In this document: piece by piece, positions 26,312 to 46,874 of the stretch
Position numbering within the stretch: the stretch's first letter is position 1
How the letters are laid out: each line of letters starts with the position of its first letter
Translations under genes and position numbers: made by a program
DNA from: Candidatus Saccharibacteria bacterium UBA6824
GTDB lineage: Bacteria > Patescibacteriota > Saccharimonadia > Saccharimonadales > UBA10212
Assembly: GCA_002452155.1 (NCBI GenBank)
Contig: DKEK01000006.1
Span: 22,532 to 86,531 of the forward strand
Length of the DNA stretch: 64,000 nucleotides
Direction of reading: 5' to 3'
The notes under the pieces: model-generated
Told to the model about the DNA's origin: nothing
Seen by the model: the letters and a program-made list of their open reading frames with translations, nothing else
Database searches by the model: none

Positions 26312-26426
26312 AGTCTAAGCTCCCACCTGCGGTGCTGGTAAAGTTCTCTCTCTCTCTCTCTCTCTGGATTTTAGACATAGCTGTTGGTTTTTACCTTCCT
26401 CATGGTGCTTGAGGTTATTGTAGCAT
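26312..26426 (-). promoter_or_regulatory. promoter (TGCTACAAT, 26417-26425) and leader of beta-helix copy 2
   Basis: Extended -10 sits 106 nt upstream of the ATG. The 61-nt block 26366-26426 matches 43742-43802 with 2 mismatches. Confidence 0.65.
26345..26365 (-). repeat. (GA)10 dinucleotide repeat in the 5' leader of beta-helix copy 2
   Basis: Perfect TC x10 on the plus strand, 34-54 nt upstream of the ATG at 26311. Confidence 0.95.
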
Positions 26427-32525: not shown

Positions 32526-35500
32526 CTAGTACTTGATTATGTAGTTCAGTGTGAGGTAAGCCCCGCTGTCGAGTGGCGAGCCGGTTGGTCCGATGGTGAC
32601 ATTGCTGTGCGTACCGCTGCCGTCGTTTCTCGCCACGGCGTTGTTCCCATCGCCACAACAGTCCACCGTATCGAGAAGATGATGAGACTTTGGGGTGCGA
32701 TTTGCAAGTGTGGCCCCCTCATTATTAGCAAGAGCATTGACGTCGGTGTTGGAAGAGTTGAGTCCAACCGGCGCTCGACCCCGCAGGTCGGGGAGATTAA
32801 AGGTGGTAGAACCATCACCCACCCCGTAGGTCGTGCCGACGACAGCGAAGAGAGAGGCATAGGTTGTTCGCGAGACGGCCGAACCATCGGCAAGCAGGTA
32901 ACCCGTCGGGGCGCTCGACCCGGCAAAAGGCACAACTGTTCCGGCCGGATTAATCACGGCGCTGCCGCTGAGATCACTCCAGGTACCGCTGGCACAGCCA
33001 CGGAAGGTACCGGAATTGGAGTTATAGTAGATGGCACCGTCGATACAGGTAGGATCACCAGAGGTGTTTTTATTGCCCAGCACCAGCAAAACCGGCGTCG
33101 AGCCGGCAGCACCCAGCGTAATCTTGGAATTGGTGGTGTCGACGCTAAACAAGCTGGCAGTCGAGGTGTTCTGAATCTGGAAAACAGCAGTATTATCAGT
33201 ACCCGGTTTGACAATTACGCCGCCCGTAGCACCCGCCGGGCTAAGGTTAATGTTGCCGGTGCCGGACTGAAGAAGAAGTGAACTGGCAGCTACGGTGGAG
33301 CCAATGGTGATGACGTTTTTGCCAGTGGAAGTAGCTGTAGCACCGATGTTAATGGTGTTGGTGTTGCCTGAAGCGACATTGCCGTTACCAATGTTTATGG
33401 TTTCGCCGGCGGTGGATCGGCCAAAAATTAGGCTGCCAGTGTTAGCCGTAGAGCCCACTGTTACAGTATTGACGTTGGTAGTGCCAATGGAGATAGTGCC
33501 CGAGGTGCCAGCACTCAGGCCAATCGCACTAGCACCAGTACCACCTTGAATGGTCGTGGCCGAAGTGCCGAGTAAATTGCCGATAGTTACATTGGTAGTT
33601 GAGGAAGCAGTGGCGTTGTTGCCAACGTTGACGGTTTGGGCAACAGCTCCGGTAGTAGTTCCAATCTGTACTGTGCCAGCTATGCCGCCGTTGCCTAGCT
33701 CAACTGAGGCGCCGGAGGTATTGACCAGCAGATAGTTGTTGCCGGCCAAGTTTTGAATCCGAAAAGCAGTAGTGGAATCGGCCGCATTTTGGGCCAAAAA
33801 TGTGCCACTGAATTTGTTATTACCGGTGAAGGTCTGCGGGCCGGTGCCGTTTAGCAGAGCGACATTACCAGAGAGTCTAGCATCAGCTACCGTACCAGAG
33901 CTTATGTTCGAGCCGTTGAGACTGGTTAGCGAAGCACCAGAGCCGGAGAAAGTGCCGGCAATGGCCGTGCCGGAGATGTTGAGGTTGCCGGTTTGAGCAG
34001 AACCTGGGGTAGAACCTTGTAATTGAACATAGCCACTACCGCCAATTGATGGAGCATAGCCAGAACAGACAGAGCCAGTCGTACAAATGATGCCGGTTTC
34101 GGCCGGCAGGGTGAGACTGAAGGTGCCCGCCCCAGGATTGGCAGCTTGGAGGGAAATATTACCAGAACCACCGGAGTTATAGAGGGTTAAGTTACCGGTA
34201 AGGGTTGAGGCTTTACCTAAAACTACCCTGGAGCCAGAGGTGTCCACCAGCAGCAGTTCATTGCCGGCCAGGTTTTGAATCCTAAAGGCAGTGGTGGAGT
34301 CGGCCGCGTTTTGGGCCAAAAATGTGCCACTGAATTTGTTATTACCGGTAAAGGTTTGCGGGCCGGTGCCGTTTAGCAGAGCGACATTACCAGATAGACG
34401 GGCGTCAGCTACCGTACCAGAGCTTATGTTGGAGCCGTTGAGACTGGTTAAGTTAACTCCGGAAACAGCTGGCAATTGGGTCGAGCCATTTAACTGAACA
34501 AGTTGCGAGGCCCCGTTAAAGCTGTTGCCCTGCAGTGTGACATTAGAGCTCAGGCGAATATCAGCCACTGTCCCCGAGCTTAGGTTGGAACCGTTTAAAT
34601 TAGTTAGGCTGGCGCCGTTGCCAGAGAATGTACCAGCGATAATAGTGCCCGAAACATTGATATTGCCAGTTTCCTGAGTTCCCGGCGTGCTAGCTTGCAA
34701 GCTGACGCAGTTGCCGAAGGCACAGCTGCCGGTACCGGGTGGACCGGCTGGACCGGTTGGACCGGTGGCGCCATTAGTACCATTTGTGCCAGCGGTACCC
34801 GTGGCGCCGGCTGGACCGGTGGCACCAGGGACACCGGTGGCGCCGGTTGCACCCTGAAGACCTCCCGCGCCAGTGGGACCGCTGCCGGTACAGCCGGTGG
34901 CTGTACAGACCAATACTTTATTAATAGTAAGGCCGGAGTTATTGAGGGAGCTGGTACCGCCGGAGGCAGCCAGACTGCCGCTGGCGGTGAAGCCGCCACT
35001 CAGTTGTAATACACCAGTGGTTGGTTCTGCGACCAGTTGGCCGAGTGTCAGGTTTTTGCCCTTGGCCAGGACGGTGTCGAGGTTTAGGGTCAGCTGGCCG
35101 CCTTTGGTGCTCAGGAGGGCGGAGTCGCTGGCTTGGGAACTTAGGTCGGTGGCCGGCGGTTTATTTTGGCGTAGCAGGCCGGAAAGGGCGAAGGCACCAG
35201 AGACTAAAGCTATGAGTGCCACAAAAGCCAGGCCTACAAAGATTGGCCGGTGGAAAAAAAGACCTGTTCGTCGGGGACCACTGCCCGAATCTTCGATGCC
35301 GCTGTTTACAGGGGCCGACGTAGCTTCCCCCAGCTCAGGAACGGCGGCTAGAGGCACCGAAGTTAATTGATTAATTAAGGAGGGGTGAAGCGGCGGTGTA
35401 CCTATAACCGTTGGCGGGCTAGCCGGCGGCTGCCAGGAGTTTTCCAGCTGCCGCCAGTCAGTGGGGCTGGGGTGGTTGTTGGCAAGGGGTGGTGCGGGAA

Positions 35501-35951
35501 ATGGCGTAGTCTCGAGTGATTTAATTTCTGAGGTTGTGGATGGCGCCCAAGACGGCGCTGCTGCCGGTTGAGCCGGGGGCGCCTCAGACAGAGGTTGGAC
35601 TGGAGATGACGGTGGTGCCTGAGGGGTGGTAAGGGTTGAGGGTGAGGTAATTGCTTGGGAGTTCTCAAAACCGGCCCACCCGGGTAAATCGTCTTCAGCC
35701 ACCCCAGTGCTACTATCGTAATTATCTATGGGCGCTTCCGCTATGGCCGGCGCCAAGGCCCGTAGGCCTAGTGAGCCTTTTAGCTCATCCTCTAATTGCG
35801 CTCCCAGCCGGGCCAGCTTATCGGGCGCAAGCTTGATCGCCTGGCTGGCTCTAAAGACGCGTTTTCGGCAACGCGCCGAACAGACCTTGGCATTGGGCCG
35901 GCCTTCAAACTGCTCATTGCAACCTGGACATAGCTTAGTTTTGGGAGCCAT
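32526..35951 (-). CDS. 1141-aa membrane-anchored fibre protein: N-terminal zinc ribbon, Pro-rich linker, TM helix, collagen-like Gly-X-Y tract, repeated fibre modules, phage tail-collar domain
   Basis: CPGC...CSARC near the N-terminus and the TM segment IFVGLAFVALIALVSGAFAL. GXY repeats are encoded at ~34731-34885. The tail-collar-type motif PFAGSSAPTGYLLADGS...TTFNLPDLRGRAPVG is encoded at 32763-32948. Confidence 0.85.
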   Translation of the reverse strand: MAPKTKLCPGCNEQFEGRPNAKVCSARCRKRVFRASQAIKLAPDKLARLGAQLEDELKGSLGLRALAPAIAEAPIDNYDSSTGVAEDDLPGWAGFENSQAITSPSTLTTPQAPPSSPVQPLSEAPPAQPAAAPSWAPSTTSEIKSLETTPFPAPPLANNHPSPTDWRQLENSWQPPASPPTVIGTPPLHPSLINQLTSVPLAAVPELGEATSAPVNSGIEDSGSGPRRTGLFFHRPIFVGLAFVALIALVSGAFALSGLLRQNKPPATDLSSQASDSALLSTKGGQLTLNLDTVLAKGKNLTLGQLVAEPTTGVLQLSGGFTASGSLAASGGTSSLNNSGLTINKVLVCTATGCTGSGPTGAGGLQGATGATGVPGATGPAGATGTAGTNGTNGATGPTGPAGPPGTGSCAFGNCVSLQASTPGTQETGNINVSGTIIAGTFSGNGASLTNLNGSNLSSGTVADIRLSSNVTLQGNSFNGASQLVQLNGSTQLPAVSGVNLTSLNGSNISSGTVADARLSGNVALLNGTGPQTFTGNNKFSGTFLAQNAADSTTAFRIQNLAGNELLLVDTSGSRVVLGKASTLTGNLTLYNSGGSGNISLQAANPGAGTFSLTLPAETGIICTTGSVCSGYAPSIGGSGYVQLQGSTPGSAQTGNLNISGTAIAGTFSGSGASLTSLNGSNISSGTVADARLSGNVALLNGTGPQTFTGNNKFSGTFLAQNAADSTTAFRIQNLAGNNYLLVNTSGASVELGNGGIAGTVQIGTTTGAVAQTVNVGNNATASSTTNVTIGNLLGTSATTIQGGTGASAIGLSAGTSGTISIGTTNVNTVTVGSTANTGSLIFGRSTAGETINIGNGNVASGNTNTINIGATATSTGKNVITIGSTVAASSLLLQSGTGNINLSPAGATGGVIVKPGTDNTAVFQIQNTSTASLFSVDTTNSKITLGAAGSTPVLLVLGNKNTSGDPTCIDGAIYYNSNSGTFRGCASGTWSDLSGSAVINPAGTVVPFAGSSAPTGYLLADGSAVSRTTYASLFAVVGTTYGVGDGSTTFNLPDLRGRAPVGLNSSNTDVNALANNEGATLANRTPKSHHLLDTVDCCGDGNNAVARNDGSGTHSNVTIGPTGSPLDSGAYLTLNYIIKY
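33741..33928 (-). repeat. internal repeat copy A of the fibre gene
   Basis: ~190 bp nearly identical to 34263-34450 (period 522 bp). Encodes ...NGSNISSGTVADARLSGNVALLNGTGPQTFTGNNKFSGTFLAQNAADSTTAFRIQNLAGN. Confidence 0.9.
34263..34450 (-). repeat. internal repeat copy B of the fibre gene
   Basis: See 33741-33928. Confidence 0.9.
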
Positions 35952-36000: not shown

Positions 36001-36020
36001 TGTGAACATCTTTAAGTATT

Positions 36021-36071
36021 AAGCATAAGCGTCCCGTTGTCAAGAGTTACGGAACGTTTTTGTCCCGCTTT
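36021..36071 (+). repeat. 51-bp direct repeat copy 1, containing a plus-strand terminator-like hairpin + T5
   Basis: Identical to 36214-36264 (period 193 bp). Hairpin CGTCCCGT/ACGGAACG at 36030-36056, followed by TTTTT. Confidence 0.85.
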
Positions 36072-36213
36072 GGCAGGCACCTTAGTTGGTTGGCTTGATT
36101 GCACCGGATCTGCGCCCTCATTTTGGGCCAGCTTAGCGGCTCCCTAGGGCCGCCCGCTTCCTTGCTCTTTGACAGACGGGTTTTCAAGTAACCTGTAGGG
36201 AATAAGACAGTAT

Positions 36214-36264
36214 AAGCATAAGCGTCCCGTTGTCAAGAGTTACGGAACGTTTTTGTCCCGCTTT
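36214..36264 (+). repeat. 51-bp direct repeat copy 2, containing a plus-strand terminator-like hairpin + T5
   Basis: Identical to 36021-36071. Confidence 0.85.
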
Positions 36265-36667: not shown

Positions 36668-39568
36668 TTAAGCCTTGGAGAGGCTTATTTTAACCTCTCT
36701 CCCATCTACTTTAACCGTTTGGTTGTAATCCCCTTCCCCCTTAAGCTCACCACTGGCCAGGGCTTCGGCATAAATTTGGTCCCTAAATTGCTCGTAGGCA
36801 TCTGTTATAAGCTTGTTTTTGGCTTCTATGCGCAGCTTTATGCGGTCATCGACGTTTAGGCCGGCTTTTTTACGGGCATTTTGGATATTGCGCACCAGCT
36901 CACGCATAACGCCTTCGGCTCTTAGCTCATCCGTTAACTTAGTGTTTAATTTAATGGCCGGTTTACCCCGTTTGAATTTAACTTCTTTGACGTTTAATTC
37001 ATCGGCTACAACCTCATAAAACTCCTTGGGTTTAGCGATTTGAGAGTTAATTAGGGCCGCAGCCAAGGGCTGACGGACTTTTATGCCAGCTGCCGCGCGC
37101 TGGGCGTGGCCCTCCTTTATTAAGTTTCTAATTTCATTCATATCATCTAGCACTTTAAGACTAGCATTATCCGGCTTATTAACAGATGGCCAGTCACTTA
37201 AGTGGACTGATTTTGGCTGGTCGGTTCCATCTACCAAGTCGCGCCAGATATGATCGGGTAAAAAGGGCGCGAAGGGCGCCATTAACTGACTAATGCGCAG
37301 GAGTACATAATGGAGTGTTTGGTAAGCCTGTTCCTTATCTAGGTCGTTTTCACTCTTCCAAAAGCGCCGCCGCGACCGCCGGACATACCAGTTAGAAATG
37401 TCGTCCAGCAACTCGGTAATCGGTCGGGCGGCTTTATCTAGTCGGTAGGCTTCCATGCCCTCCGTAACCTGGGCCACGGCCTGGTCCAGCCGAGCTAGCA
37501 CCCACTGATCTAAAATACTGCTGCTTTTGAGTTTTTTTAAGGGGTCGCTTGGCTGCCATTTATCGACATCGGCGTATAGTCTATAAAAGCTGTAGGTGTT
37601 ATTGAGGCTCATCAGTACGTTGCGCTGGACATCGCGCAGATATTCGACCGAGAACCGTGTATCTTCGCCATTCATCAGGGGTGAGCTGGCCATGAAAAAG
37701 CGCATGGTATCAACACCGTACTCATCGAAGACTTCGTCCATTGGGGCATAGTTTTTCTTGCGCTTGCTTAGTTTTTCACCGTCGGCGGCCACAATCCAGC
37801 CGCTACAGATGGCATTTTTGAATACCGGACTGTCAAATAGGGCCGTACCAAGTACATGGAGGGTGTAAAACCAGCCCCGGGTTTGGTCAACGGCTTCGGC
37901 GATGAAGTCGGCCGGAAACTTTTTTTCCCACTGCTGCTTGTTTTCAAACGGATAGTGGTCCTGGGCGTAAGGCATAGCGCCCGATTCGAACCAGCAGTCC
38001 AAGACTTCGGGGATACGCTTGGCGATTTTACCAGAGTCAGTTTTAATTTCGACTTCGTCAATGTAGGGCCGGTGCAGATCGCCGATTTTACTAGGGTTAA
38101 CGGCCTTTTCTTTTAGCTCTTTGAGGCTGCCGACCACGACTACTTCGCCGTCGTCGGTGACCCATATCGGTAGCGGCGCGCCCCAGAAGCGATTGCGAGA
38201 AATACTCCAGTCGCGGGCGCCTTCCAGCCACTTGCCGAAGCGTCCATCACGAATATGTTCCGGCACCCATTTAATTTTTTGATTATTGGCTACCAATTTA
38301 TCCCGAACATCTGTCACTTTAATCAGCCAGTTATCGGTGGCGTAATAGAGCAGCGGCGTGTCACAGCGCCAGCAAAACGGATAAGTATGTTCAAAGGTTT
38401 CGGCGGCGTAGACTCGGTCCTTCTTGGTCAAATAAGTGATTATCGGCTCGTCGGCGTCTTTGAAAAACTTGCCGGCGATATCTGCCGCCAGACCGATGTT
38501 GTTCTGGACATGGCCGTTTTCATCGACCGTGATAAAAATCGGCAGACTTTTGTCTTTGGCCAGGTTCAGGTCATCCTCACCGAAGGCCGGCGCCACGTGC
38601 AGCACGCCCGTGCCCTCTTCCAGGCTGACAGAGTCGGCCGTCCAAACTCTGTAGAGCTTTTTATTGTTGGCCTCTTTCAGGTTCTTTAAGTGAAATAGCG
38701 GCTCGTAGCCTTTGCCGGCGAGTTGCTCGCCCGTAACTTCTTTGACGATGTGGTAATCGTCAATGTTTAATACCTCCAATCGCTCGCGGGCCAGCACCAG
38801 CACTTCTTCTTGGCCGTTATCATCTTTCAAGCGCACATAGACATATTTGGCGCCCGGCTTGACAGCCAGTGCGGCGTTGCCCGGCAGGCTCCAGGGCGTG
38901 GTGGTCCAGCCTAACAAATAGCCATCCTCGTCCGTTAGCTTGAACTTCACAAACAAACTGGGGTCCTGCACGCCGTCTTGGTAGCCCTGATTGAGCTCGA
39001 AATTAGAGAGGGGTGTGGCGCAGCGCGGACAGTACGGTGAGCTACGAAAATCTTTATAAACCAGCCCTTTATCATGCAAGGTCTTTAAGGTCCACCAGAC
39101 GCTCTCTATATAGCTCTCATCAAGGGTTGAATAGGTGTTTTCGTAGTCCGCCCAGCGTCCGACGCGGCGGAACATCTTTTCCCAGACGTCCTTGTACTTA
39201 AAAACCGATGCCCGGCACTCCTGGTTAAACTTATCGATACCATAGGCGATGATGTCCTTTTTACTCTTGAAACCATGCTCTTTTTCTATGGCATACTCTA
39301 CCGGCAAACCGTGGGTGTCCCAGCCGACCCGGCGTGGGACATAGAAGCCCTGCATGGTTTTATAGCGGGTGACGGTATCTTTGATGGTGGTTTGTTCCAG
39401 GTGGCCATAGTGCGGCACGCCATTGGCAAATGGCGGGCCATCATAAAAGCTAAACAGCGGGCCGTCACGGCGGTTTTGCAGGCTGAGTTCAAAGGTGTTT
39501 TCTTTCTCCCAGGTGGCTAAAATCTGCTCTTCAATTTCAGCCAGAAAATGCTTTTTGGTCTCACTCAC
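36668..39568 (-). CDS. ileS: isoleucyl-tRNA synthetase
   Basis: 966 aa with a HIGH-type motif (PHYGHL), a KMSKS-type motif (KLSKRKKN), and the CP1 editing domain present. Confidence 0.95.
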   Translation of the reverse strand: MSETKKHFLAEIEEQILATWEKENTFELSLQNRRDGPLFSFYDGPPFANGVPHYGHLEQTTIKDTVTRYKTMQGFYVPRRVGWDTHGLPVEYAIEKEHGFKSKKDIIAYGIDKFNQECRASVFKYKDVWEKMFRRVGRWADYENTYSTLDESYIESVWWTLKTLHDKGLVYKDFRSSPYCPRCATPLSNFELNQGYQDGVQDPSLFVKFKLTDEDGYLLGWTTTPWSLPGNAALAVKPGAKYVYVRLKDDNGQEEVLVLARERLEVLNIDDYHIVKEVTGEQLAGKGYEPLFHLKNLKEANNKKLYRVWTADSVSLEEGTGVLHVAPAFGEDDLNLAKDKSLPIFITVDENGHVQNNIGLAADIAGKFFKDADEPIITYLTKKDRVYAAETFEHTYPFCWRCDTPLLYYATDNWLIKVTDVRDKLVANNQKIKWVPEHIRDGRFGKWLEGARDWSISRNRFWGAPLPIWVTDDGEVVVVGSLKELKEKAVNPSKIGDLHRPYIDEVEIKTDSGKIAKRIPEVLDCWFESGAMPYAQDHYPFENKQQWEKKFPADFIAEAVDQTRGWFYTLHVLGTALFDSPVFKNAICSGWIVAADGEKLSKRKKNYAPMDEVFDEYGVDTMRFFMASSPLMNGEDTRFSVEYLRDVQRNVLMSLNNTYSFYRLYADVDKWQPSDPLKKLKSSSILDQWVLARLDQAVAQVTEGMEAYRLDKAARPITELLDDISNWYVRRSRRRFWKSENDLDKEQAYQTLHYVLLRISQLMAPFAPFLPDHIWRDLVDGTDQPKSVHLSDWPSVNKPDNASLKVLDDMNEIRNLIKEGHAQRAAAGIKVRQPLAAALINSQIAKPKEFYEVVADELNVKEVKFKRGKPAIKLNTKLTDELRAEGVMRELVRNIQNARKKAGLNVDDRIKLRIEAKNKLITDAYEQFRDQIYAEALASGELKGEGDYNQTVKVDGREVKISLSKA

Positions 39569-39609: not shown

Positions 39610-39939
39610 CTAAGCCGCCAGTGGCTGGACCACGTGTAGGCGATGGCCGCCAGCCCTTGTGTAGTCGTGAGTTTCTTGGTCGCGGGTATAATAATCGAGC
39701 TCATCCATCAGCGGTATGGGGCTGCCCTGCCACAGCCGCTGCAGCGTGCCGCTGTCGCTAATGGCTAGGAATGCCGGGTACTGGGTGATGTCGTACAGCC
39801 GGGCGTAGTCGGCCCCGGCTTGGGTTTCCAGGCTAATTAACTCTAGTTTCTTGGCCTTGAAGCGCTGGTAGTCGCGGGCAAAATCCTGGACCAGCCCGTC
39901 CTGCTCTGAATGCGGATGATAGAGCACTATCACTTTCAT
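39610..39939 (-). CDS. thioredoxin-fold-like hypothetical protein (no CxxC)
   Basis: The start is set at MKVIVLY (39939) because TGCTACAAT (39946-39954) lies 6 nt upstream. Confidence 0.5.
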   Translation of the reverse strand: MKVIVLYHPHSEQDGLVQDFARDYQRFKAKKLELISLETQAGADYARLYDITQYPAFLAISDSGTLQRLWQGSPIPLMDELDYYTRDQETHDYTRAGGHRLHVVQPLAA

Positions 39940-39991
39940 AAAGCTATTGTAGCACTCCAAATAAAGCCTTACCCCCTAAAATTTAGTGCTA

Positions 39992-40020
39992 TTGCTTATT
40001 AAGGCACTAAATATTATAAT
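39992..40020 (+). promoter_or_regulatory. promoter TTGCTT-17-TATAAT
   Basis: Hexamers at 39992-39997 and 40015-40020. A 9-bp inverted repeat ATTTAGTGC/GCACTAAAT (39981-40012) brackets the -35. Confidence 0.6.
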
Positions 40021-40123
40021 ATGCTTGTCTTGAGGTGTTCGCTGGCAGTTCTTCCGGTGAACGCACCCCAACAAGATCCCTCCGGAGATTGGGCTAATCT
40101 CTAGTGCTCCGAAAGGACGAGTC

Positions 40124-40474
40124 GTGAAGAATAACTCGATTTGTATCGCGGTATACGCGCTTCTGGGTCTGGGCTTTGCCCTCAGCGTCGGTCTGCCGCC
40201 AAGCATCGCTGCGGCGGCGGCGGTTGGCGGTGGTCTGTTGGGCATCTGCGTCATGCTGGACCCCTTCAGGGCTTACATCGTTGGCTGGGTGACCTTCTGG
40301 GTGACCGTCAGTCTCGCCATCACCAACTACGTATTCGGCTTTGGCCTCGGGCTGATGACCGTTTTCGCGGCCGCAACACTGGTCGTTTCCGCTGTCGTCG
40401 GCTACGTGCTGCCCACCGTGGTTTTCGCCGGTCTCGTCGGTCATCGCTATGAAGACGAGATTCGTTACGGCTAA
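40124..40474 (+). CDS. small polytopic membrane protein (GTG start), unknown function
   Basis: 116 aa with 4 hydrophobic Gly/Ala/Val-rich segments. GC-rich. It has its own promoter and terminator. Confidence 0.55.
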   Translation: MKNNSICIAVYALLGLGFALSVGLPPSIAAAAAVGGGLLGICVMLDPFRAYIVGWVTFWVTVSLAITNYVFGFGLGLMTVFAAATLVVSAVVGYVLPTVVFAGLVGHRYEDEIRYG

Positions 40475-40511
40475 GCGCCTACCGTCCGCTCAGCGAAGAA
40501 ACGGACGTTCT

Positions 40512-40550
40512 GCCCCCAACTGTATTGCCAAAAGCAATGCAGTTGGGGGC
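40512..40550 (+). terminator. long-stem terminator hairpin
   Basis: 17-bp stem GCCCCCAACTGTATTGC / GCAATGCAGTTGGGGGC (one G-T pair), loop CAAAA, followed by a T-rich tail. Confidence 0.6.
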
Positions 40551-40584
40551 CTCTTAATTTATTATCACCTTAGCTTTGGTCGTC

Positions 40585-40719
40585 TCAAGAGCAGCCGGTT
40601 GTGGAACCGCAGGAAGTACAGACATAGCAGCTGCCGGCTCTTTGGGTTTGGTTACCGCAGTTGTAGCATAGCGGCGCAGCGTCATCTAGGCGGATAGTAT
40701 CCTCCTTTGGCTCAGGTGG
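40585..40719 (-). pseudogene. orphan duplicate of the nrdJ 3' end (last 44 codons + stop)
   Basis: Encodes PPEPKEDTIRLDDAAPLCYNCGNQTQRAGSCYVCTSCGSTTGCS*, identical to the C-terminus of the intact nrdJ (43867-44001). The frame is closed directly upstream by TGA (40720-40722) and has no start codon. Confidence 0.85.
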
Positions 40720-40721
40720 TC

Positions 40722-41432
40722 AGAGGACGTTCCTCTATAGGTGTTAATCTATGCTAGTTTAATTCAATAATTAGCTAACTGGTATTTAAATTCGCTTAGC
40801 ATGTTTTTTTGCTCTTCGTAATCGGCTACGAATTTTAGGTAATCTGCTCTGGAAGCAAATAGTTTTAAAGCCATCGAGGTATTGAGCCACTGCGGCTCGT
40901 GTCCGGCCAGGTAATAATTGAGGCTTGAGAAGCGATAGTTTCGCCATAGTCTAGGGTTAAGATGTATGTAACGGGTGATGTGTTGCAGGTATGAGTCGTT
41001 GTCGAGCCTGACGGCTTTATAGCGGCTTTCGAACAAAGGCCCGCTGCGCTGGTATTTAAGGTTGAAATAACGGCTGTAGCTGGTCATTAAACTGCGCATT
41101 AGCTTCTCCAGATAAGGCACGTCTTTTTGATAAACCAGCAGGTGCAGATGGTTGGACATAAGACAGTAAGCCAGCAATTGCACCCTGCCCCGATAGTGCG
41201 GGTATGGCTCGCCGGTTTTACTGAGTGCTGATTTGTTAGACAGGTATCTTTCAAACAAAGCCAAAAAGTACTTATAGTCGGCTGCTTCGAGAAATATCTT
41301 TTGTTGGTTAGCTCCCCTAGTGTAAATGTGATAGTACGAGTCGGGAGCTTGTTCTTTATTAACATTGCGCGATGGCATGGAGCAATTATACTGAAACTAG
41401 CACCAAATTACACCTATAGAGGAACGTCCTCT
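40722..41432. mobile_element. RAYT-type unit: Y1 (HUH) transposase gene flanked by perfect 22-bp inverted, hairpin-forming repeats
   Basis: AGAGGACGTTCCTCTATAGGTG (40722-40743) is the exact reverse complement of 41411-41432. Each end contains the hairpin AGAGGA-CGT-TCCTCT. Confidence 0.75.
40764..41378 (-). CDS. REP-associated tyrosine (IS200/IS605-like Y1, HUH) transposase
   Basis: 204 aa with YHIYTRG, the HUH motif in CLMSNHLHLLV, and the catalytic Tyr context RYIHLNP. Confidence 0.85.
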   Translation of the reverse strand: MPSRNVNKEQAPDSYYHIYTRGANQQKIFLEAADYKYFLALFERYLSNKSALSKTGEPYPHYRGRVQLLAYCLMSNHLHLLVYQKDVPYLEKLMRSLMTSYSRYFNLKYQRSGPLFESRYKAVRLDNDSYLQHITRYIHLNPRLWRNYRFSSLNYYLAGHEPQWLNTSMALKLFASRADYLKFVADYEEQKNMLSEFKYQLANY

Positions 41433-41462
41433 AAATTCCTTAAACGTCCTCTAAATTCCTTA
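41423..41462. repeat. 2 x 20-bp tandem repeat AACGTCCTCTAAATTCCTTA overlapping the right inverted repeat
   Basis: Two exact adjacent copies. The first 10 nt of each unit equal the terminal 10 nt of the inverted repeat. Confidence 0.9.
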
Positions 41463-41488
41463 AATTATTTCATCTGTTAGTTCGTTGG

Positions 41489-43660
41489 TCATACGGTTGA
41501 TGAATCCACGATCAGGCCGGTCGCCGCAAGCGCGGTCAGCAGCGACGCCAGGGCTGCGTTCCCTCCGCGCGATCCTGTGACGGTCTGCTGCGTTGCTGTC
41601 GCGTGGTTGTAAAAGCCGAGATTCGCGCCAAGATGCCGAAGGTCGAGGGTAACGTGGAGCGAGTCGTCCGTCTTGAGCACGTCGGCGGCACTGCGGTAGA
41701 GGATCGTGTCGAGGGAACCCGCGCCACTACCCCATCGGATCGCACCGTCAGCGCGAAGCAGCCAGCGGGCGAAGCCGTCGCCAGTAACGAGTCCCTGAAG
41801 CTGTGTGGAGGTTGAGAGAGCGCCAGTGGCCGAGATGAGTGCCCCTGACCCCAAAGAGAAGACACCACTGACCGGATTGAGCGTGAACATACCCACCCCG
41901 GCATTGCGAATCGTAATTATGCCGTCGTGACTAAAATTGACAAGATTGTAAGTTCCAGTGCTCGACTGGAACTGCACTATATCAGAGGTTTGCCCCCCGG
42001 TTTTTTCACGGAATATGACCGGCACCACATCTGCGGTGGGCACGACAATTTGGGGCGTCGAAGGTGACAAGAGCACTGACGACAGCCGGGGATCAGTGGT
42101 TCCCACCGCTGCAACCCATCCGGTCTTGCCCGAACCGGTTTCCTTTACGTAGAGCGATGTCGATGCACCGCCATCGGTGCGACTGTACGCGGAGCCAACG
42201 GGGGCATACAGTACGCCTTCAGGCGAGCCACTACCAATCGCCTCCCGCACAAACCCAGCAGGCGGGGCCATCCCAAGACCGGCGCCACTTTCAACCTCGC
42301 GGTAGTCACGAATTACGCAGTTCAGGAAAACGTCGGGGTCGGCAAACGCGCCTGATCCCACCAGCATCCCCAATGTGACACGGCTATTGTTCGCCTGTTC
42401 GATTACCCCTGAGATCACGCACCCGTCGATTGTGTGACCGCGCGCAACATTGTCAGGGGATCCATCGGCGTTGATTTTTGCGAAAGCGACCCCCTCGGTG
42501 AAAGCCGCACCCGCCGTGCCGATAATATTTTTCAGGTTGACGGTGATCCTGATGTTCCTGTAAACGAGCGCGGTCGTACTGGTGAAAGACACAAGGATGG
42601 GGGCTGCTCCTTGGATACTCCCATCGCTCTCACGGTCATAGTAGTTCAGGGTGATGTTTTCAACCGAGTCGGTGTAACCAACTTTCGAGCTGTTCGACTG
42701 GTTCTTCGCTCTGACAGTAACCTCGTGATTCTTGGCTCCGTACACGAAGTAGGCACGACCTGGGCTGTCGGCATCTACCATCGCCACTAGGTCATCCCCG
42801 GAGTTCTGACAACTCAGCGGATAGAAAGTAAGACTTGTCTTGATGCGCGCATTGATTTGCCGACTCTTATAACTGTCAGGGTCTGAAATGGCCTTTTGGA
42901 ACGCGACGCCAGCACGACCGCCGATTAGTTCCACGTCGAGGTTGATGCCCACACAACCCTGGTAGAACATGAGCAGGTCACGACCCACCTGGCCGTTGCC
43001 GCTGGAGACATCCTGGGACGTGAACTTGAGCCTACCAATGTCGATGTTGTTGCAGGCGCTGAAGCCAAAAAGCACGCCGACCTGTGATCCCGTGAAGGTG
43101 TAGGTGTCGGCAATGCTCGCACCTGACCCCCAGATTTTGATGCCGCGAAGGTTTGTGAAGAGATAGAGAGTAGCGAGACCTGACACCTTGTAAGTGCCTG
43201 CGTCGGGAAAGAACAAGGTGCCACCACCGGAAGCCTGGAGGGCTGCGCACGCCGCAGTTATCGCAGTCGTATCGTCAGCAACGTTATTACCGACCGCACC
43301 GTAAGCTTTGACATTAAAGACTTGGGAGCCTTTGTCTAAGAAAGTGCCGGCATTAAAGGTTTTAGTTCCGGTAATAGTTTCAGTACCAGCCAGGTGAACC
43401 ACAGCCGAATCAGTCGCTTTGGCGGCTAGGTCTGAGGTTAAGTTAGTGATTTTAGATTCAGAGATGACTGAAACATCGGCGTCGGTGATATTAAGAGCAG
43501 CTAGTTTTGACTTAACAATAGCAGCCGTGGACGCTACCTTGGCATTGGTAATAATTCCGTCTTTGAGCGTGCCGTCTGGGTTATGTTCTTGGTTTAGGAA
43601 GTCATTGAGGATGTCTCCCCAGGTGCCATCATCAGAGCCGGACTTTGGTAGTCTAGACAT
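41489..43660 (-). CDS. right-handed parallel beta-helix (tailspike-like) protein, family copy 3
   Basis: 723 aa with N-terminus MSRLPKSGSDDGTWGDILNDFLNQEHNPDG and the entry motif NVKAYGAVGNNVADDTTAIT. The C-terminal motif is LGFYNHATATQQTVTGSRGGNAALASLLTALAATGLIVD. GC-rich. Confidence 0.9.
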   Translation of the reverse strand: MSRLPKSGSDDGTWGDILNDFLNQEHNPDGTLKDGIITNAKVASTAAIVKSKLAALNITDADVSVISESKITNLTSDLAAKATDSAVVHLAGTETITGTKTFNAGTFLDKGSQVFNVKAYGAVGNNVADDTTAITAACAALQASGGGTLFFPDAGTYKVSGLATLYLFTNLRGIKIWGSGASIADTYTFTGSQVGVLFGFSACNNIDIGRLKFTSQDVSSGNGQVGRDLLMFYQGCVGINLDVELIGGRAGVAFQKAISDPDSYKSRQINARIKTSLTFYPLSCQNSGDDLVAMVDADSPGRAYFVYGAKNHEVTVRAKNQSNSSKVGYTDSVENITLNYYDRESDGSIQGAAPILVSFTSTTALVYRNIRITVNLKNIIGTAGAAFTEGVAFAKINADGSPDNVARGHTIDGCVISGVIEQANNSRVTLGMLVGSGAFADPDVFLNCVIRDYREVESGAGLGMAPPAGFVREAIGSGSPEGVLYAPVGSAYSRTDGGASTSLYVKETGSGKTGWVAAVGTTDPRLSSVLLSPSTPQIVVPTADVVPVIFREKTGGQTSDIVQFQSSTGTYNLVNFSHDGIITIRNAGVGMFTLNPVSGVFSLGSGALISATGALSTSTQLQGLVTGDGFARWLLRADGAIRWGSGAGSLDTILYRSAADVLKTDDSLHVTLDLRHLGANLGFYNHATATQQTVTGSRGGNAALASLLTALAATGLIVDSSTV

Positions 43661-43802
43661 AGTCTAGACCTCCAGCTGCAGGGCTGTTTAAGCTCTCCCT
43701 CTGAAGGTTTTTCTGGGTGGGTAAGAGTGTGTGGGTGTGTGGGATTTTAGACATAGCTGTTGGTGTTTACCCTCCTCATGGTGCTTGAGGTTATTGTAGC
43801 AT
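43661..43802 (-). promoter_or_regulatory. promoter (TTGCAG-16-TGCTACAAT, -10 at 43793-43801) and ~125-nt leader of beta-helix copy 3
   Basis: The extended -10 and the 61-nt leader block are shared with copy 2. The AAAAACCTTCAGAG block is shared with copy 1. SD GGAGG lies 10 nt before the ATG. Confidence 0.65.
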
Positions 43803-43866
43803 AAGGACCAAGAACTGCAATTAATTTTATAGCAAATTTTGACCATTTTAAATCTAGGATAGCGGA

Positions 43867-46734
43867 TCAACTGCAGCCAGTGGTGCTGCCACAGGAAGTG
43901 CAGACGTAGCACGAGCCGGCTCTTTGGGTTTGGTTACCGCAGTTGTAGCATAGCGGCGCAGCGTCATCTAGGCGGATAGTATCCTCCTTTGGCTCAGGCG
44001 GGCTGGTAGTCTCCTGCTGGAGATGTTTGAGGTCAGCCGTGCTGGCGGCTACAGTCGTGACGGCTTCGGTGATGGCGGCTTCGGCCTGGGCTACGGTCTC
44101 AAGAGCTTGTTCAACAATTACATCCTGGGGGGCCGCCGCTTCGGATAGTAAGCTGGTTTGGCCCGGCGGCTGGTCGTCTATGCTGGCCAGGCCGACTTCC
44201 AGGCGTTCGTCGAAGCTCAAGTAGGTTTTACCAAGCCGGCGGAAAATATAGTCAATCAGCGAACTGGCAGTCCGGATTTCCGGGTCATCGGTAATGCCGG
44301 CCGGCGCGAAGCTAGTGTTGGCAAATACCCGAACATAACTTTTTAGCGGTACGCCGTATTGCAGGCCATAACTAACGGCTATACCGAAGGCGTCCATGAC
44401 GCCCCGCAGGGTCGAACCCATTTTAGAACTGCTGATGAACAACTCACCGGGCGTACCGTCGTCGTATTCACCAACAATCACGTAGCCCCGGGTGCCGGCG
44501 ACTGTAAATTTAAAGTTTTTGGCGTTGCGGATTCGCGGCAGGTCGCGACGGACCGCTGTATGCGGCACCAGGCTTTCGTTAAATGTAGCAACGAGGGCTG
44601 CCGGACTGGCGTTGCCGGCGGTGGCCACGGACGCCGGTTCTTCTTTAGCGCCGTCTTTTTTGGCCATCGAAAGCGGCTGGGCAACTTTGCAGTTATCGCG
44701 GTAAATAGCCACCGCTTTGAGGCCCATCTTCCAAGCGTCCATGTGCAACTGTTCGACATCCTCAACACTAACGTCCTCGGGCATGTTGACGGTTTTGGAA
44801 ATGGCGCCGGAAATAAACGGCTGGACGGCACTCATCATTTTGACGTGGCCCAAGTAGTGGATGGCGTTATCGCCCATGCTGCAGGCAAAGACCGGTTCGT
44901 GATCTTTTTTCAGATGCGGTGCGTGAAGAATGGTCTTTTCAACGTCGATGTAATTGACGATGTCATCGATCTGGGACTTGTTGTAGCCCAGCGCCTTAAG
45001 CGCCCGCGGCACGGTTTGGTTGACGATGTGCATGGTGCCGCCACCGACCAGTTTTTTGACCTTAACCAGCCCTAAGTCCGGTTCAATACCGGTGGTATCA
45101 CAGTCCATCATTAGGCCAATGGTGCCGGTTGGCGCCAGCACAGTAGCTTGGGAGTTGCGCATGCCGTGCAGCTCGGACAGCTCGACAGCCTCGTCCCAGG
45201 AGCTAGCAGCGGCGGAGAGTAGTTCTTCGGCCGCCAGCGACGGATCAATTTTTTTGACTTCATCGCGGTGCATCTTGAGCACTTTATTCATCCCCTCCAC
45301 GTCTTTGTCATAGCCAGCAAAAGGGCCGACCCGCTTGGCAATTTTGGCGCTGGTAGCGTAAGCGTGGCCGGTCATGAGGGCCGTGATGGCCGCCGCTTGG
45401 GCCCGGCCCTCGTCGCCGTCATAAGGCAGGCCTTGAGCCATTAGCAGCGCGCCAAGATTGGCATAACCGAGTCCCAGCTCGCGATAAGCTCGGGCGGTTT
45501 TAGCGATGCTTTTGGTCGGGTACTCGCTATAGCCGACCAGAATTTCCTGGGCCGTAAACATCAGCTCGACAGTGTGGCGGAAGGCCTCAATATCGAAACT
45601 AAAGTCGTCGTTTAGGTATTTGAGCAAGTTAATCGAAGCCAAGTTGCAAGCCGAATTATCGAGGTGCATATATTCACTGCAGGGGTTAGAAGCATTGATA
45701 CGGCCAGCGTTGGGCGCCGTGTGCCAGCGGTTGATAGTGGTATCAAACTGCATGCCGGGATCGGCGCACTCCCAGGCGGCTTCGGCGATTTGGCGGAAAA
45801 TATCCCGGGCCTTAACCCGCGCTACGGCCTTGCCGGTGGTAACAGCGCTCAGATTCCAGTCGTCGTCGTTTTGGACAGCCTGCATAAAATCATCAGTTAC
45901 ACGCACCGAATTGTTGGCGTTTTGGTACTGGACCGAGAAAGAATCCTTGCCGTCAAGCGTCATGTCAAAACCGGCCGTTTCCAGCACCCGGGTCTTGCGC
46001 TCTTCTATAGCCTTGCACCAAATAAACTCCTGCACGTCCGGGTGGCTGGCGTTTAAGATGACCATTTTGGCCGCCCGGCGAGTTTTGCCGCCGCTTTTAA
46101 TAGCGCCGGCCGATGAATCGGCGCCGCGCATAAATGACAGCGGCCCGGAAGCCGTGCCGGCACTCTTGCCCAGCGGCTCGCGGGAGCTGCGTAGGCTGCT
46201 GACATTGATACCCGACCCACTGCCGCCCTTAAAGATCATGCCCTCTTCGTAGTACCAGTTAAGGATGGCCGGCATGGTGTCTTCAACCGCCAAAATAAAG
46301 CAGGCGCTGGCCTGCTGGGAACGGCCGTGGGCGCCAATATTAAACCAGACCGGGCTGTTAAAGGCCGCCCGCTGGGTGGCTAAGATGTACTTAAGTTCTT
46401 CGCGGAAATCCTCGGCCTCGGCGGGGCTGACAAAATAGCCACCTTGGACGCCTTCACGGGTAATGGTATCGACAACCCGGTTGATAAGTTGTTTGAGGGA
46501 TCGTTCGCGACCCTGGGTATCGGGAGTACCGGTAAAATATTTTTGGGCGACGATGTTGATGGCGTTAAGGCTCCAGCCGTCGGGAAAATCGACATCTTTT
46601 TGTTCAAATACCGGCTTGCCGGTGCCCGGATTAGTGATTAATGAATCGCGTTTGGTCCATGATAGGCTGTCGTAGGCCTTAGTTTTTGGCTTCGTGAAAA
46701 GCCGACGAACCGACAACGTGGCTGCTTGTGCCAT
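43867..46734 (-). CDS. nrdJ: adenosylcobalamin-dependent (class II) ribonucleotide reductase with C-terminal Cys4 zinc-ribbon tail
   Basis: Class II RNR similarity (NPCSEY..., TGIEPD). The start is set at MAQAATLSV (46734), preceded by AAGGAGAGGG. The track ORF extends to 46848. Confidence 0.9.
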   Translation of the reverse strand: MAQAATLSVRRLFTKPKTKAYDSLSWTKRDSLITNPGTGKPVFEQKDVDFPDGWSLNAINIVAQKYFTGTPDTQGRERSLKQLINRVVDTITREGVQGGYFVSPAEAEDFREELKYILATQRAAFNSPVWFNIGAHGRSQQASACFILAVEDTMPAILNWYYEEGMIFKGGSGSGINVSSLRSSREPLGKSAGTASGPLSFMRGADSSAGAIKSGGKTRRAAKMVILNASHPDVQEFIWCKAIEERKTRVLETAGFDMTLDGKDSFSVQYQNANNSVRVTDDFMQAVQNDDDWNLSAVTTGKAVARVKARDIFRQIAEAAWECADPGMQFDTTINRWHTAPNAGRINASNPCSEYMHLDNSACNLASINLLKYLNDDFSFDIEAFRHTVELMFTAQEILVGYSEYPTKSIAKTARAYRELGLGYANLGALLMAQGLPYDGDEGRAQAAAITALMTGHAYATSAKIAKRVGPFAGYDKDVEGMNKVLKMHRDEVKKIDPSLAAEELLSAAASSWDEAVELSELHGMRNSQATVLAPTGTIGLMMDCDTTGIEPDLGLVKVKKLVGGGTMHIVNQTVPRALKALGYNKSQIDDIVNYIDVEKTILHAPHLKKDHEPVFACSMGDNAIHYLGHVKMMSAVQPFISGAISKTVNMPEDVSVEDVEQLHMDAWKMGLKAVAIYRDNCKVAQPLSMAKKDGAKEEPASVATAGNASPAALVATFNESLVPHTAVRRDLPRIRNAKNFKFTVAGTRGYVIVGEYDDGTPGELFISSSKMGSTLRGVMDAFGIAVSYGLQYGVPLKSYVRVFANTSFAPAGITDDPEIRTASSLIDYIFRRLGKTYLSFDERLEVGLASIDDQPPGQTSLLSEAAAPQDVIVEQALETVAQAEAAITEAVTTVAASTADLKHLQQETTSPPEPKEDTIRLDDAAPLCYNCGNQTQRAGSCYVCTSCGSTTGCS

Positions 46735-46874
46735 AGTTTTACCCTCTCCTTGTGGGTTTATTTTGTTTTTAAGTTTTTGTTTAGAGCTAGCCCCAAATTG
46801 CTCCTTCAGACAATTCTTATGATAACTCATAAGCAGTGGCCAAAGCAACCGGCTATTTTTCTCTCTCGCTTAAA

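Follow-up and report, generated by a model that had tools for sequence, protein, structure and literature searches.

Here, we describe a cassette of 3.3 kb lying in the 3′ end of nrdJ, the gene for the class II (B12-dependent) ribonucleotide reductase, in a soil Saccharibacterium (Candidatus Saccharibacteria bacterium UBA6824). The analysed stretch, hereafter called the window, comprises 64 kb of a metagenome assembly, and all coordinates given are window positions. Two copies of the last part of nrdJ bracket the insert, which holds a gene for a surface or tailspike-like protein and a unit resembling the RAYT transposases. Following the minus strand from nrdJ towards the next conserved gene, the locus includes the following features.

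43867–46848, minus strand: nrdJ, class II (B12-dependent) ribonucleotide reductase, a 993-codon open reading frame with a cysteine-rich C-terminal tail
43867–44001, minus strand: repeat copy A, the expressed end of nrdJ, consisting of CCG, the core (43915–43998) and the cassette-borne tail A (43867–43914)
43661–43866, minus strand: spacer from the nrdJ stop to the beta-helix gene, with a putative −10 element TACAAT (43793–43798) and a 61-nt leader (43742–43802)
41489–43660, minus strand: beta-helix cargo gene, tailspike-like, 723 aa (Pfam Pect-lyase_RHGA_epim and BppL_N)
41394–41462, no strand: left end of the RAYT unit, composed of a hairpin-bearing inverted-repeat arm (AGAGGA-CGT-TCCTCT; 41394–41432) and two tandem 20-mers (41423–41462)
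40764–41378, minus strand: Y1 (HUH) transposase, RAYT or IS200-like, 204 aa (Pfam Y1_Tnp, 3.2e-9)
40722–40760, no strand: right end of the RAYT unit, a hairpin-bearing inverted-repeat arm that stops 2 nt short of copy B
40585–40719, minus strand: repeat copy B, the displaced and untranslated nrdJ end, consisting of CCA, the core (40633–40716) and tail B (40585–40632)
39610–39960, minus strand: o116, the conserved gene directly after nrdJ in related Saccharibacteria and thus the marker of the ancestral right flank

A duplicated gene end and the insert between its copies

The start of nrdJ is uncertain, with public gene calls beginning at 46830 or 46734 (987 and 955 aa, respectively); its domain content comprises the barrel, N-terminal and TSCPD domains (Pfam Ribonuc_red_lgC at 5.6e-142, Ribonuc_red_2_N and TSCPD). 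The protein ends in a cysteine-rich zinc-finger tail with a CxxC...CxxC...C pattern (CYNCGNQTQRAGSCYVCTSCGSTTGCS), which is kept in 68 relatives. As this tail is required for catalytic turnover (PMC5704485), an insertion at this place would be tolerable only if a replacement tail came with it.

A repeat search returned a direct repeat of 135 nt (40585–40719 and 43867–44001) with a spacing of 3282 nt and 121 of the 135 bases identical (~90%), and codon-by-codon comparison on the minus strand identified the repeat as the last 44 codons of nrdJ plus the TGA stop. The two copies differ at 14 nucleotides distributed over 10 codons, and all 14 differences are synonymous, including three switches between serine codon families (TCG/AGC, AGC/TCC and AGT/TCT), so that the peptide encoded by either copy is PPEPKEDTIRLDDAAPLCYNCGNQTQRAGSCYVCTSCGSTTGCS followed by the stop. 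Proximal copy A completes the nrdJ reading frame, and distal copy B is a non-expressed fragment, its frame being shut directly upstream by a TGA at 40720–40722 and a start codon being absent; homology to nrdJ ends at 40719/40720. A preliminary description of this DNA, made from the sequence alone, had reported the repeat with its 84-bp identical core, the purely synonymous differences with the three serine switches and the dead distal copy; all of this was reproduced, at the same coordinates and without any non-synonymous or frame-disrupting change.

The differences are unevenly placed. An 84-nt core is free of any difference (43915–43998 in copy A, 40633–40716 in copy B), a single difference lies 5′ of it (CCG in copy A, CCA in copy B) and the remaining 13 fall in the last 48 nt, giving a density of 1/87 versus 13/48 (Fisher p = 4.5e-6). 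Since only 24% of random single-base changes in the compared codons would be synonymous, ten synonymous codon changes out of ten are not a product of chance, and both versions of the tail appear to have evolved under selection as working gene ends.

From the purely synonymous divergence it had been concluded that the two copies evolved in different lineages, and this conclusion stands for one part of the repeat and falls for the other. In Saccharibacteria there is hardly any variation over the last ~30 residues of the tail (CYNCGNQT...CGSTTGCS), so that synonymous-only divergence is expected there between any two lineages; the 13 residues before them are variable. The 84-nt core spans this lineage-variable stretch (PPEPKEDTIRLDD) and is nevertheless identical in both copies, so that this part of the cassette's nrdJ fragment must stem from the same species. 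In contrast, the last 48 nt look foreign: tails A and B share 35 of 48 bases with one another and are about equally distant from the tails of all 68 other lineages, with a mean identity of 33.6 and 35.3 of 48, respectively, so that the two tails are no closer to each other than lineages are on average. The nrdJ fragment of the cassette is thus itself a mosaic of a native core and a foreign-looking end, with the switch from one to the other falling at the end of the DNA-conserved Cys-motif block. Reading the core for a dif-like or integrase-type site gave just one weak imperfect palindrome of 17 nt (GGAGGATACTATCCGCC), and none of the other beta-helix paralogues in the window is flanked by a gene-end duplication.

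For comparison, we used 80 loci from a search for nrdJ relatives, almost all labelled Saccharibacteria and up to ~23 kb each (L numbers below are our handles for loci and contigs). The gene order ftsZ-nrdR-nrdJ-o116-ileS is conserved across these loci, and in related species nrdJ is directly followed by the next conserved gene. The closest nrdJ relative, L001, has 87% protein identity; o116, found in most of the 80 loci, is 81% identical in L001, and in both L001 and L002 it starts ~40 nt past the nrdJ stop. A second copy of the nrdJ tail occurs in 0 of the 80 loci, and the duplication is accordingly seen in no relative without the insert. With regard to which version of the tail the relatives resemble, L001 is slightly nearer to tail B (39 versus 37), which is not decisive, and it is the near-identical strains described below that carry tail B itself. 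An exact-protein look-up with the 139-aa nrdR gene call gave no match.

The insert contains only two credible genes, those for the 723-aa beta-helix protein and the 204-aa Y1 transposase. A Pfam scan of all insert open reading frames returned Pect-lyase_RHGA_epim, BppL_N and Y1_Tnp and no integrase domain, confirming that a tyrosine or serine integrase is lacking, and six further open reading frames matched no family. The cargo protein combines a conserved N-terminal module, resembling phage tail-spike PHROGs, with a unique G+C-rich body. A search of 5.8 billion proteins returned no close homologue over the full length, the best match having 35% identity over 53% of the length and most matches covering the first ~80 aa only, and the donor of the gene was thus not found. 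Likewise, neither the 50,697 phage records nor the 72,556 plasmid records compared by blastn contained a match that would point to a phage or plasmid origin. We regard the cargo as a modular, strain-specific protein of the surface or tailspike-like kind.

The G+C content of the cargo gene climbs from 47% to 63% along its length (mean of 63% in the last 400 nt, with an 80-nt maximum of 74%), and that of the RAYT gene averages 44.6%, the lowest 80-nt stretch (27.5%) lying just beyond the gene, within the inverted-repeat arm of the right end. The compositional mosaic noted earlier is therefore real, but the hand counts of ~35% for the RAYT gene and ~66% for the beta-helix end were local values, the gene-wide figures being 44.6% and 63%. 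The 5′ end of the cargo gene is 87% identical over 131 nt to a paralogue in the window, and the 61-nt leader (43742–43802) is 97% identical to 26366–26426, upstream of a beta-helix paralogue; the promoter is placed upstream of the cargo gene on sequence grounds and is to be regarded as putative. As a side observation, the leader block contains the TACAAT hexamer and a small hairpin (CCTCAAGCACCATGAGG), the sequence around the block is only 77–87% identical and the block has no Rfam match; it may represent a conserved leader or a regulatory RNA of the beta-helix family. No Rfam family was found anywhere in the window.

The transposase carries the HLH motif (SNHLHLLV) and the catalytic tyrosine in RYIHLNP, as read from the translation, and scores 41 bits against NCBIfam REP_Tyr_transpos, below the cut-off of 80. 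It has 1575 homologues, of which the best 120 are nearly all ~204 aa long and 60–79% identical, and are found across Saccharibacteria. The unit is flanked by inverted arms of 39 nt, 87% complementary and each with a hairpin AGAGGA-NNN-TCCTCT, and this hairpin is common to the surroundings of RAYT homologues in three other species (L105, L106 and L108). In an alignment with the units of L105 and L108, conservation ends at ...CCTCT, corresponding to window position 40722, and homology to nrdJ starts at 40719, so that the joint between the transposase end and the displaced tail reads ...CCTCTGA/CCACCTGAG. Dispersed REP or REPIN hairpins were not seen: the window has only two copies of the hairpin, and the 80 related nrdJ loci lack it altogether.

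RAYT homologues were examined in four species, where they appear to be single-copy and reside at one fixed locus per species, and since this locus differs between species, the unit has moved over evolutionary time. Apart from the lack of dispersed REPINs, this agrees with what has been published on single-copy, domesticated RAYTs (PMC5581495). In the present species the gene lies in a strain-variable cassette, and in all 15 contigs with this RAYT (13 exact, 2 with a one-residue variant) the flanks are all the same, the unit never standing alone elsewhere. A metagenome scan with the RAYT protein gave 4 loci only, 3 of them distant, and was of no use for target-site analysis. A direct-repeat scan of the RAYT-homologue loci L105 and L108 found no comparable repeat bracketing the unit, and no relative was found in which a RAYT adjoins a duplicated gene end. 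Two observations on the homologues stand apart from these points: in another species, the homologous RAYT unit (homologue P0034, L116–L123) lies next to the gene for a 1446-aa surface protein (Gly_rich_2, Laminin_G_3), between this gene and the ATP synthase operon, and among L105–L109, L108 has a second copy of the right-end hairpin. Saccharibacteria RAYT units may tend to adjoin genes for large surface proteins.

Integrated and empty forms among strains

The evidence on strains consists of assembled public contigs, the short ones coming from what looks like one sample series. The integrated arrangement of the window occurs with 100% identity in JGI 3300039109 (Ga0120178_000001) and NCBI GCA_036804945.1. 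Additionally, contigs assembled with k = 119 cross its junctions, with L115 spanning copy A and linking nrdJ to the cargo gene, and L083 and L088 spanning copy B and linking the cargo gene to the genes further downstream; all three are 100% identical to the window.

These contigs bear directly on whether the duplication could be an assembly artefact, in which the nrdJ ends of two strains were merged in a metagenome-assembled genome. The window does come from a metagenome assembly, and a metagenome-assembled scaffold, L094 (GCA_036771655.1, DAIPGW010000016.1), has a gap of 10 Ns between core B and the beta-helix gene. Against this, the identical arrangement appears in independent JGI, NCBI and ENA assemblies, and single k = 119 contigs cross copy A as well as copy B, which makes an artefact extremely improbable. 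L094 was also considered as an empty or alternative site and was rejected: the scaffold joins core B (40668) to the 5′ end of the beta-helix gene (43570) across the 10 Ns (positions 1155–1164 of the scaffold), a scaffolding artefact caused by the repeat. In gene tables, L094 could pass for a cassette-free locus.

Genuine empty sites were found in two contigs, L103 (JGI 3300011992, 3,634 nt) and L128 (JGI 3300011999, 2,623 nt). Both read nrdJ-CCG-core-tail B and continue from 40584 downward, which is the uninterrupted locus that the preliminary description had predicted. Apart from the repeat, 1 and 4 single-nucleotide polymorphisms (SNPs), respectively, separate them from the window; they therefore represent distinct strains, and the locus is polymorphic among near-identical strains. 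Tail B is the tail in use by these cassette-free strains and tail A is not in either of their contigs; tail B is thus the end of the uninterrupted allele, and tail A is brought along by the cassette. The L103 sample yielded no contig with a complete RAYT gene. In the L128 sample the empty site occurs alongside a variant of the cassette (L130 and L131), which differs from the window cassette by 2–5 SNPs. Informative SNPs lie at 38744, 39291, 39496, 39687 and 44180 on the chromosome and at 40834, 41908 and 42021 in the cassette. A scan of metagenome contigs with a 30-mer from the core found nothing, the collection evidently not including these samples. It is very probable that the locus represents an insertion polymorphism of a cassette that carries a replacement tail for the 3′ end of nrdJ.

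Proposed routes of gain and loss of the cassette

The scenario we favour, to which we assign a probability of about one in two as a whole, is that strains acquire and lose the cassette through a single reciprocal exchange in the core, carried out by host homologous recombination. A single crossover in the 84-bp core would convert an empty site (nrdJ-CCG-core-tail B) and a circle of 3,282 bp (right end-CCA-core-tail A) into the arrangement of the window and, in the reverse direction, restore both, corresponding to Campbell-type integration of a circle that carries a 3′-terminal fragment of nrdJ and to loop-out between the 84-bp direct repeats. With the cassette inserted, nrdJ is finished by tail A, and the resident tail B comes to lie 3.3 kb downstream as a dead fragment; as both tails encode the same peptide, the NrdJ enzyme is left unchanged. 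Saccharibacteria possess natural competence and incorporate DNA through homologous recombination (PMC10633639), which, together with the 84-bp shared segment and the lack of an integrase, points to the recombination machinery of the host as the agent. Spread from strain to strain would rely on transformation and on the long homology of the flanks. As the transposase hairpin abuts the displaced tail within 2 nt, the joint on the right probably arose through the Y1 transposase, or through its hairpin end, during the first assembly of the cassette.

The circular form that this scenario involves, and that the preliminary description had suggested searching for, may be represented by two circular contigs, L084 (JGI 3300013766, 3,361 nt) and L085 (JGI 3300013763, 3,359 nt). 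With terminal overlaps of 79 and 77 nt, each corresponds to one 3,282-nt cycle (3282 + 79 and 3282 + 77), and both show the predicted reciprocal junction, in the order transposase end, CCA, core, tail A and cargo promoter. The CCG/CCA marker segregates in all four junction types as a crossover within the core predicts. Both contigs begin at arbitrary positions within the cargo gene, and complete cycles with arbitrary starts imply that the chromosomal branches were missing or pruned in the respective assembly graphs, which hints at excess cassette copies or a mixed population without proving either. Elsewhere, branch-bounded unitigs look as expected: L086 has 3,298 nt (3,198 plus twice 50, at k = 51), and L087 and L095 stop 30 nt into the core, as is the case for branch-bounded unitigs at k = 31.

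Several points weigh against this scenario. Firstly, the circular contigs are ambiguous, as their overlaps (assembler k of 79 and 77) are shorter than the 84-nt core, and with k below the core length a de Bruijn graph contains a 3,282-nt cycle even if the integrated form alone exists; a loop of this kind is possible in a mixed or low-coverage sample. Among the k = 119 contigs none has the circle junction, and only the junction with copy B follows the transposase end. The reality of a free circle is for these reasons somewhat doubtful in our view, and we place much higher trust in the empty-site contigs, which come from two independent assemblies and have SNPs of their own. Secondly, all of this evidence is at the level of assembled contigs. 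Thirdly, the architecture was seen in no other Saccharibacterium among the 80 loci, and it may reflect a single historical event rather than a recurring process. Fourthly, the model does not account for a stretch of 84 nt identical to that of the species being fused to a 48-nt tail as diverged as that of another genus; such a fusion might go back to an earlier exchange with foreign DNA in the conserved Cys-motif block. The donor of tail A was not found, the best match among the 68 related lineages being 40 of 48. Finally, host homologous recombination is put forward as the agent solely on the grounds that no recombinase is present.

The nature of the insertion site is also relevant in this regard. 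The ~625 nt between tail B and o116 (39961–40584) have a G+C content of 54.5%, locally ~60%, and correspond to only ~40 nt in the closest species; this stretch is an older, separate insertion at the same site. The spacer between nrdJ and o116 holds 0.5–1.4 kb of unrelated small genes in further lineages (L003, L009, L011, L015, L022, L025, L030, L038 and L047), and in L021 (12805–13448) a paralogous beta-helix gene with the same N-terminal module directly follows nrdJ, past a terminator and without a duplication. With this beta-helix gene and unrelated small genes in a dozen lineages, the nrdJ-o116 site is a recurrent landing place and a hot spot of insertion. Other cassettes, which the preliminary description had suggested looking for, are present in the spacer, but no duplicated nrdJ end accompanies them.

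Such a site would also be compatible with a static history, in which the cassette was inserted in one past event and has been immobile since, the empty strains retain the ancestral allele and the circles are assembly loops. The left end would then have been made by homologous recombination in the Cys-motif block and the right end joined illegitimately at the transposase hairpin. This explanation, which we regard as unlikely in the form given, fits well with the identity of copies A and B stopping exactly where the DNA-conserved block ...CAAAGAGCCGGC ends, the point at which an exchange with foreign DNA would first show, and it draws on the architecture being unique among 80 species, on the circular contigs with overlaps of 77 and 79 nt, less than the core, on the exclusively integrated junctions at k = 119, and on the unrelated inserts of the spacer together with the beta-helix gene of L021 that lacks a duplication. 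However, a left crossover downstream of the right joint cannot yield an 84-nt duplication in one simple replacement. A static insertion is further at odds with complete unbranched cycles of 3,282 nt, starting at arbitrary positions, in two samples, while branch-bounded unitigs elsewhere end in the core, and with the variant cassette (2–5 SNPs) sharing its sample with an empty-site strain (4 SNPs), which hints at more than one gain or loss.

The transposase unit at the edge of the cassette raises the question of whether the enzyme itself could be the agent. In this explanation, site-specific insertion of a 3,282-nt circle is the work of the Y1 (HUH) transposase that the circle encodes, or of a recombinase whose gene lies elsewhere in the genome, and the core serves as the attachment site. 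The transposase is intact with its HUH and tyrosine motifs present, its right-end hairpin lies 2 nt from copy B, which is unlikely to occur by chance in a 3.2-kb insert, the unit occupies different loci in different species, and conservative site-specific exchange would account for the four junction types no less well than homologous recombination. Y1 transposases of the IS200/IS605 type use targets of 4–5 nt, have a hairpin near each cleaved end and produce no long att-like repeats. With such habits, short targets and a hairpin at each cleaved end, a left hairpin positioned 2.5 kb from the left boundary is difficult to reconcile, and the 84-bp identity is far longer than an enzyme of this kind needs. 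Further, no relative has a RAYT beside a duplicated gene end, and the RAYT homologues appear to be single-copy with a fixed context within species, as are domesticated RAYTs (PMC5581495). We consider a recombinase-driven element quite unlikely on the whole.

A more far-reaching version, improbable in our judgement when all its parts are taken together, views the 3,282-bp unit as an autonomous, integrase-free circular element, in which the HUH/Y1 enzyme and the hairpins would drive circle formation and perhaps rolling-circle copying, the 84-bp segment would be a homing arm copied from the host nrdJ and the foreign tail would act as a spare end, allowing the element to enter and leave an essential gene harmlessly.

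Neighbouring features, significance and related systems

Between the cassette and o116, two further features were recorded, both outside the repeat.

40512–40550, no strand: terminator-like hairpin with a 17-bp stem and its T-run on the plus strand, between tail B and the convergent small gene
40124–40474, plus strand: gene for a hydrophobic small protein of 116 aa, convergent with nrdJ and outside the cassette

The 116-aa protein has no family match, and tblastn found no match to it in the 80 related loci. Just downstream of the insertion site, ileS (36668–39568) is only 56–57% identical to its counterparts in L001 and L002, the species with nrdJ at 80–87%, and is 66–77% identical to that of species in which nrdJ is only 72–75% identical (ileS was compared with L001, L002, L011, L014, L025 and L065). 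The mismatch between the two genes points to a replacement of ileS through horizontal transfer or recombination. Just downstream of rplU (L21; 36272–36595), a perfect direct repeat of 52 nt occurs at 36020–36071 and 36213–36264, its copies 193 nt apart. Further on, 32526–35951 encodes a protein of 1141 aa in which collagen-like triplet repeats occur together with a phage tail collar domain; its gene includes an internal duplication of 238 nt at 86% identity (33691–33928 and 34213–34450) as well as 9-nt periodic repeats (34726–34880), and public gene calls disagree on its length (943 versus 1141 aa).

Saccharibacteria have tiny genomes with few classical mobile elements, and their strains differ in surface proteins that probably decide to which host bacterium they can attach. 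In this regard, the locus offers a concrete route by which strains may come to differ in a surface protein, namely a small cassette in the end of an essential gene that is harmless through a built-in spare end, and that is present or absent among near-identical strains of one habitat. It also places a RAYT-type transposase, supposedly domesticated, in a strain-variable cassette, and the 3′ end of nrdJ could provide a natural safe site for gene insertion in these newly tractable, naturally competent bacteria. If the improbable reading as an autonomous circle were true, integrase-poor bacteria of the candidate phyla radiation would gain a dedicated way of shuffling genes for host interaction.

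Among known systems, the minimal mobile elements of Neisseria are cassettes between conserved genes that are exchanged by transformation and homologous recombination. Flexible genomic islands of the replacement type are likewise exchanged by homologous recombination in aquatic prokaryotes (PMC4033161). As in these systems, sites with differing cassettes and no dedicated mobility genes are at hand here, and the nrdJ-o116 spacer behaves in this manner; unlike here, however, their exchange occurs by double crossovers in the flanking genes and leaves no duplicated gene end. Campbell-type insertion-duplication, as carried out with a suicide plasmid, leaves a gene that ends in the copy from the circle, then the insert and then a promoterless 3′ fragment, and is reversible. 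This is exactly the topology of the present locus, including reversal by recombination between the repeats, but insertion-duplication is a laboratory design, whereas the natural 3.3-kb circle with an 84-bp arm is putative here.

With RAYTs and their REPINs, and with IS200/IS605 elements, the unit shares a HUH-tyrosine (Y1) protein of ~200 aa between inverted palindromic hairpins. RAYTs are described as single-copy per genome and conserved across a phylum (PMC5581495, PMC3116915). Of the features that define RAYTs, the Y1 HUH fold and the flanking hairpins were found, but not dispersed REPINs in the sequence available (the 64-kb window and the 80 nrdJ loci), and the score is below the NCBIfam cut-off; moreover, RAYTs have not been described as forming the border of a strain-variable cassette, as the unit does here. 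Unlike IS200/IS605 elements, the transposase shows neither multiple copies nor insertion polymorphism of the unit alone across the 15 contigs.

Islands that use the 3′ ends of tRNA, tmRNA or protein genes, such as the tycheposons (10.1101/2020.12.28.424599), resemble the locus in their gene-end direct repeats, strain polymorphism and niche-related cargo, but their defining feature is a tyrosine or serine recombinase beside one attachment site, and the insert contains none. As in gene-end elements, the locus has gene-end repeats, a functional proximal and a dead distal copy, and precise empty sites, while no integrase is encoded by the element. The locus works like a gene-end-targeting element, but is better kept outside that group.

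The closest analogue is e14, or phage 21, in the icd gene of Escherichia coli. Element e14 is a cryptic prophage of ~15 kb with its own integrase and excisionase, and it is excised site-specifically upon SOS induction. In the integrated state icd runs into the element and a C-terminal pseudogene, icdC, lies at the far end, with the two ends differing mostly by synonymous or conservative changes (PMC13626634). Excision recombines icd with icdC (PMC13626634, citing Hill et al. 1989). In both cases, the element sits within the end of a gene of an essential pathway, supplies an alternative 3′ end and leaves the original end as a pseudogene; the present insert differs in having only 3.3 kb, no integrase and a Y1 transposase as its sole enzyme, and in its 84-bp core lying in a lineage-variable part of the gene. 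The general principle is thus already known, and what is new here is its extension to an integrase-free, gene-end-replacing cassette of 3.3 kb in a bacterium of the candidate phyla radiation, naturally polymorphic and with a RAYT-type unit at its edge.

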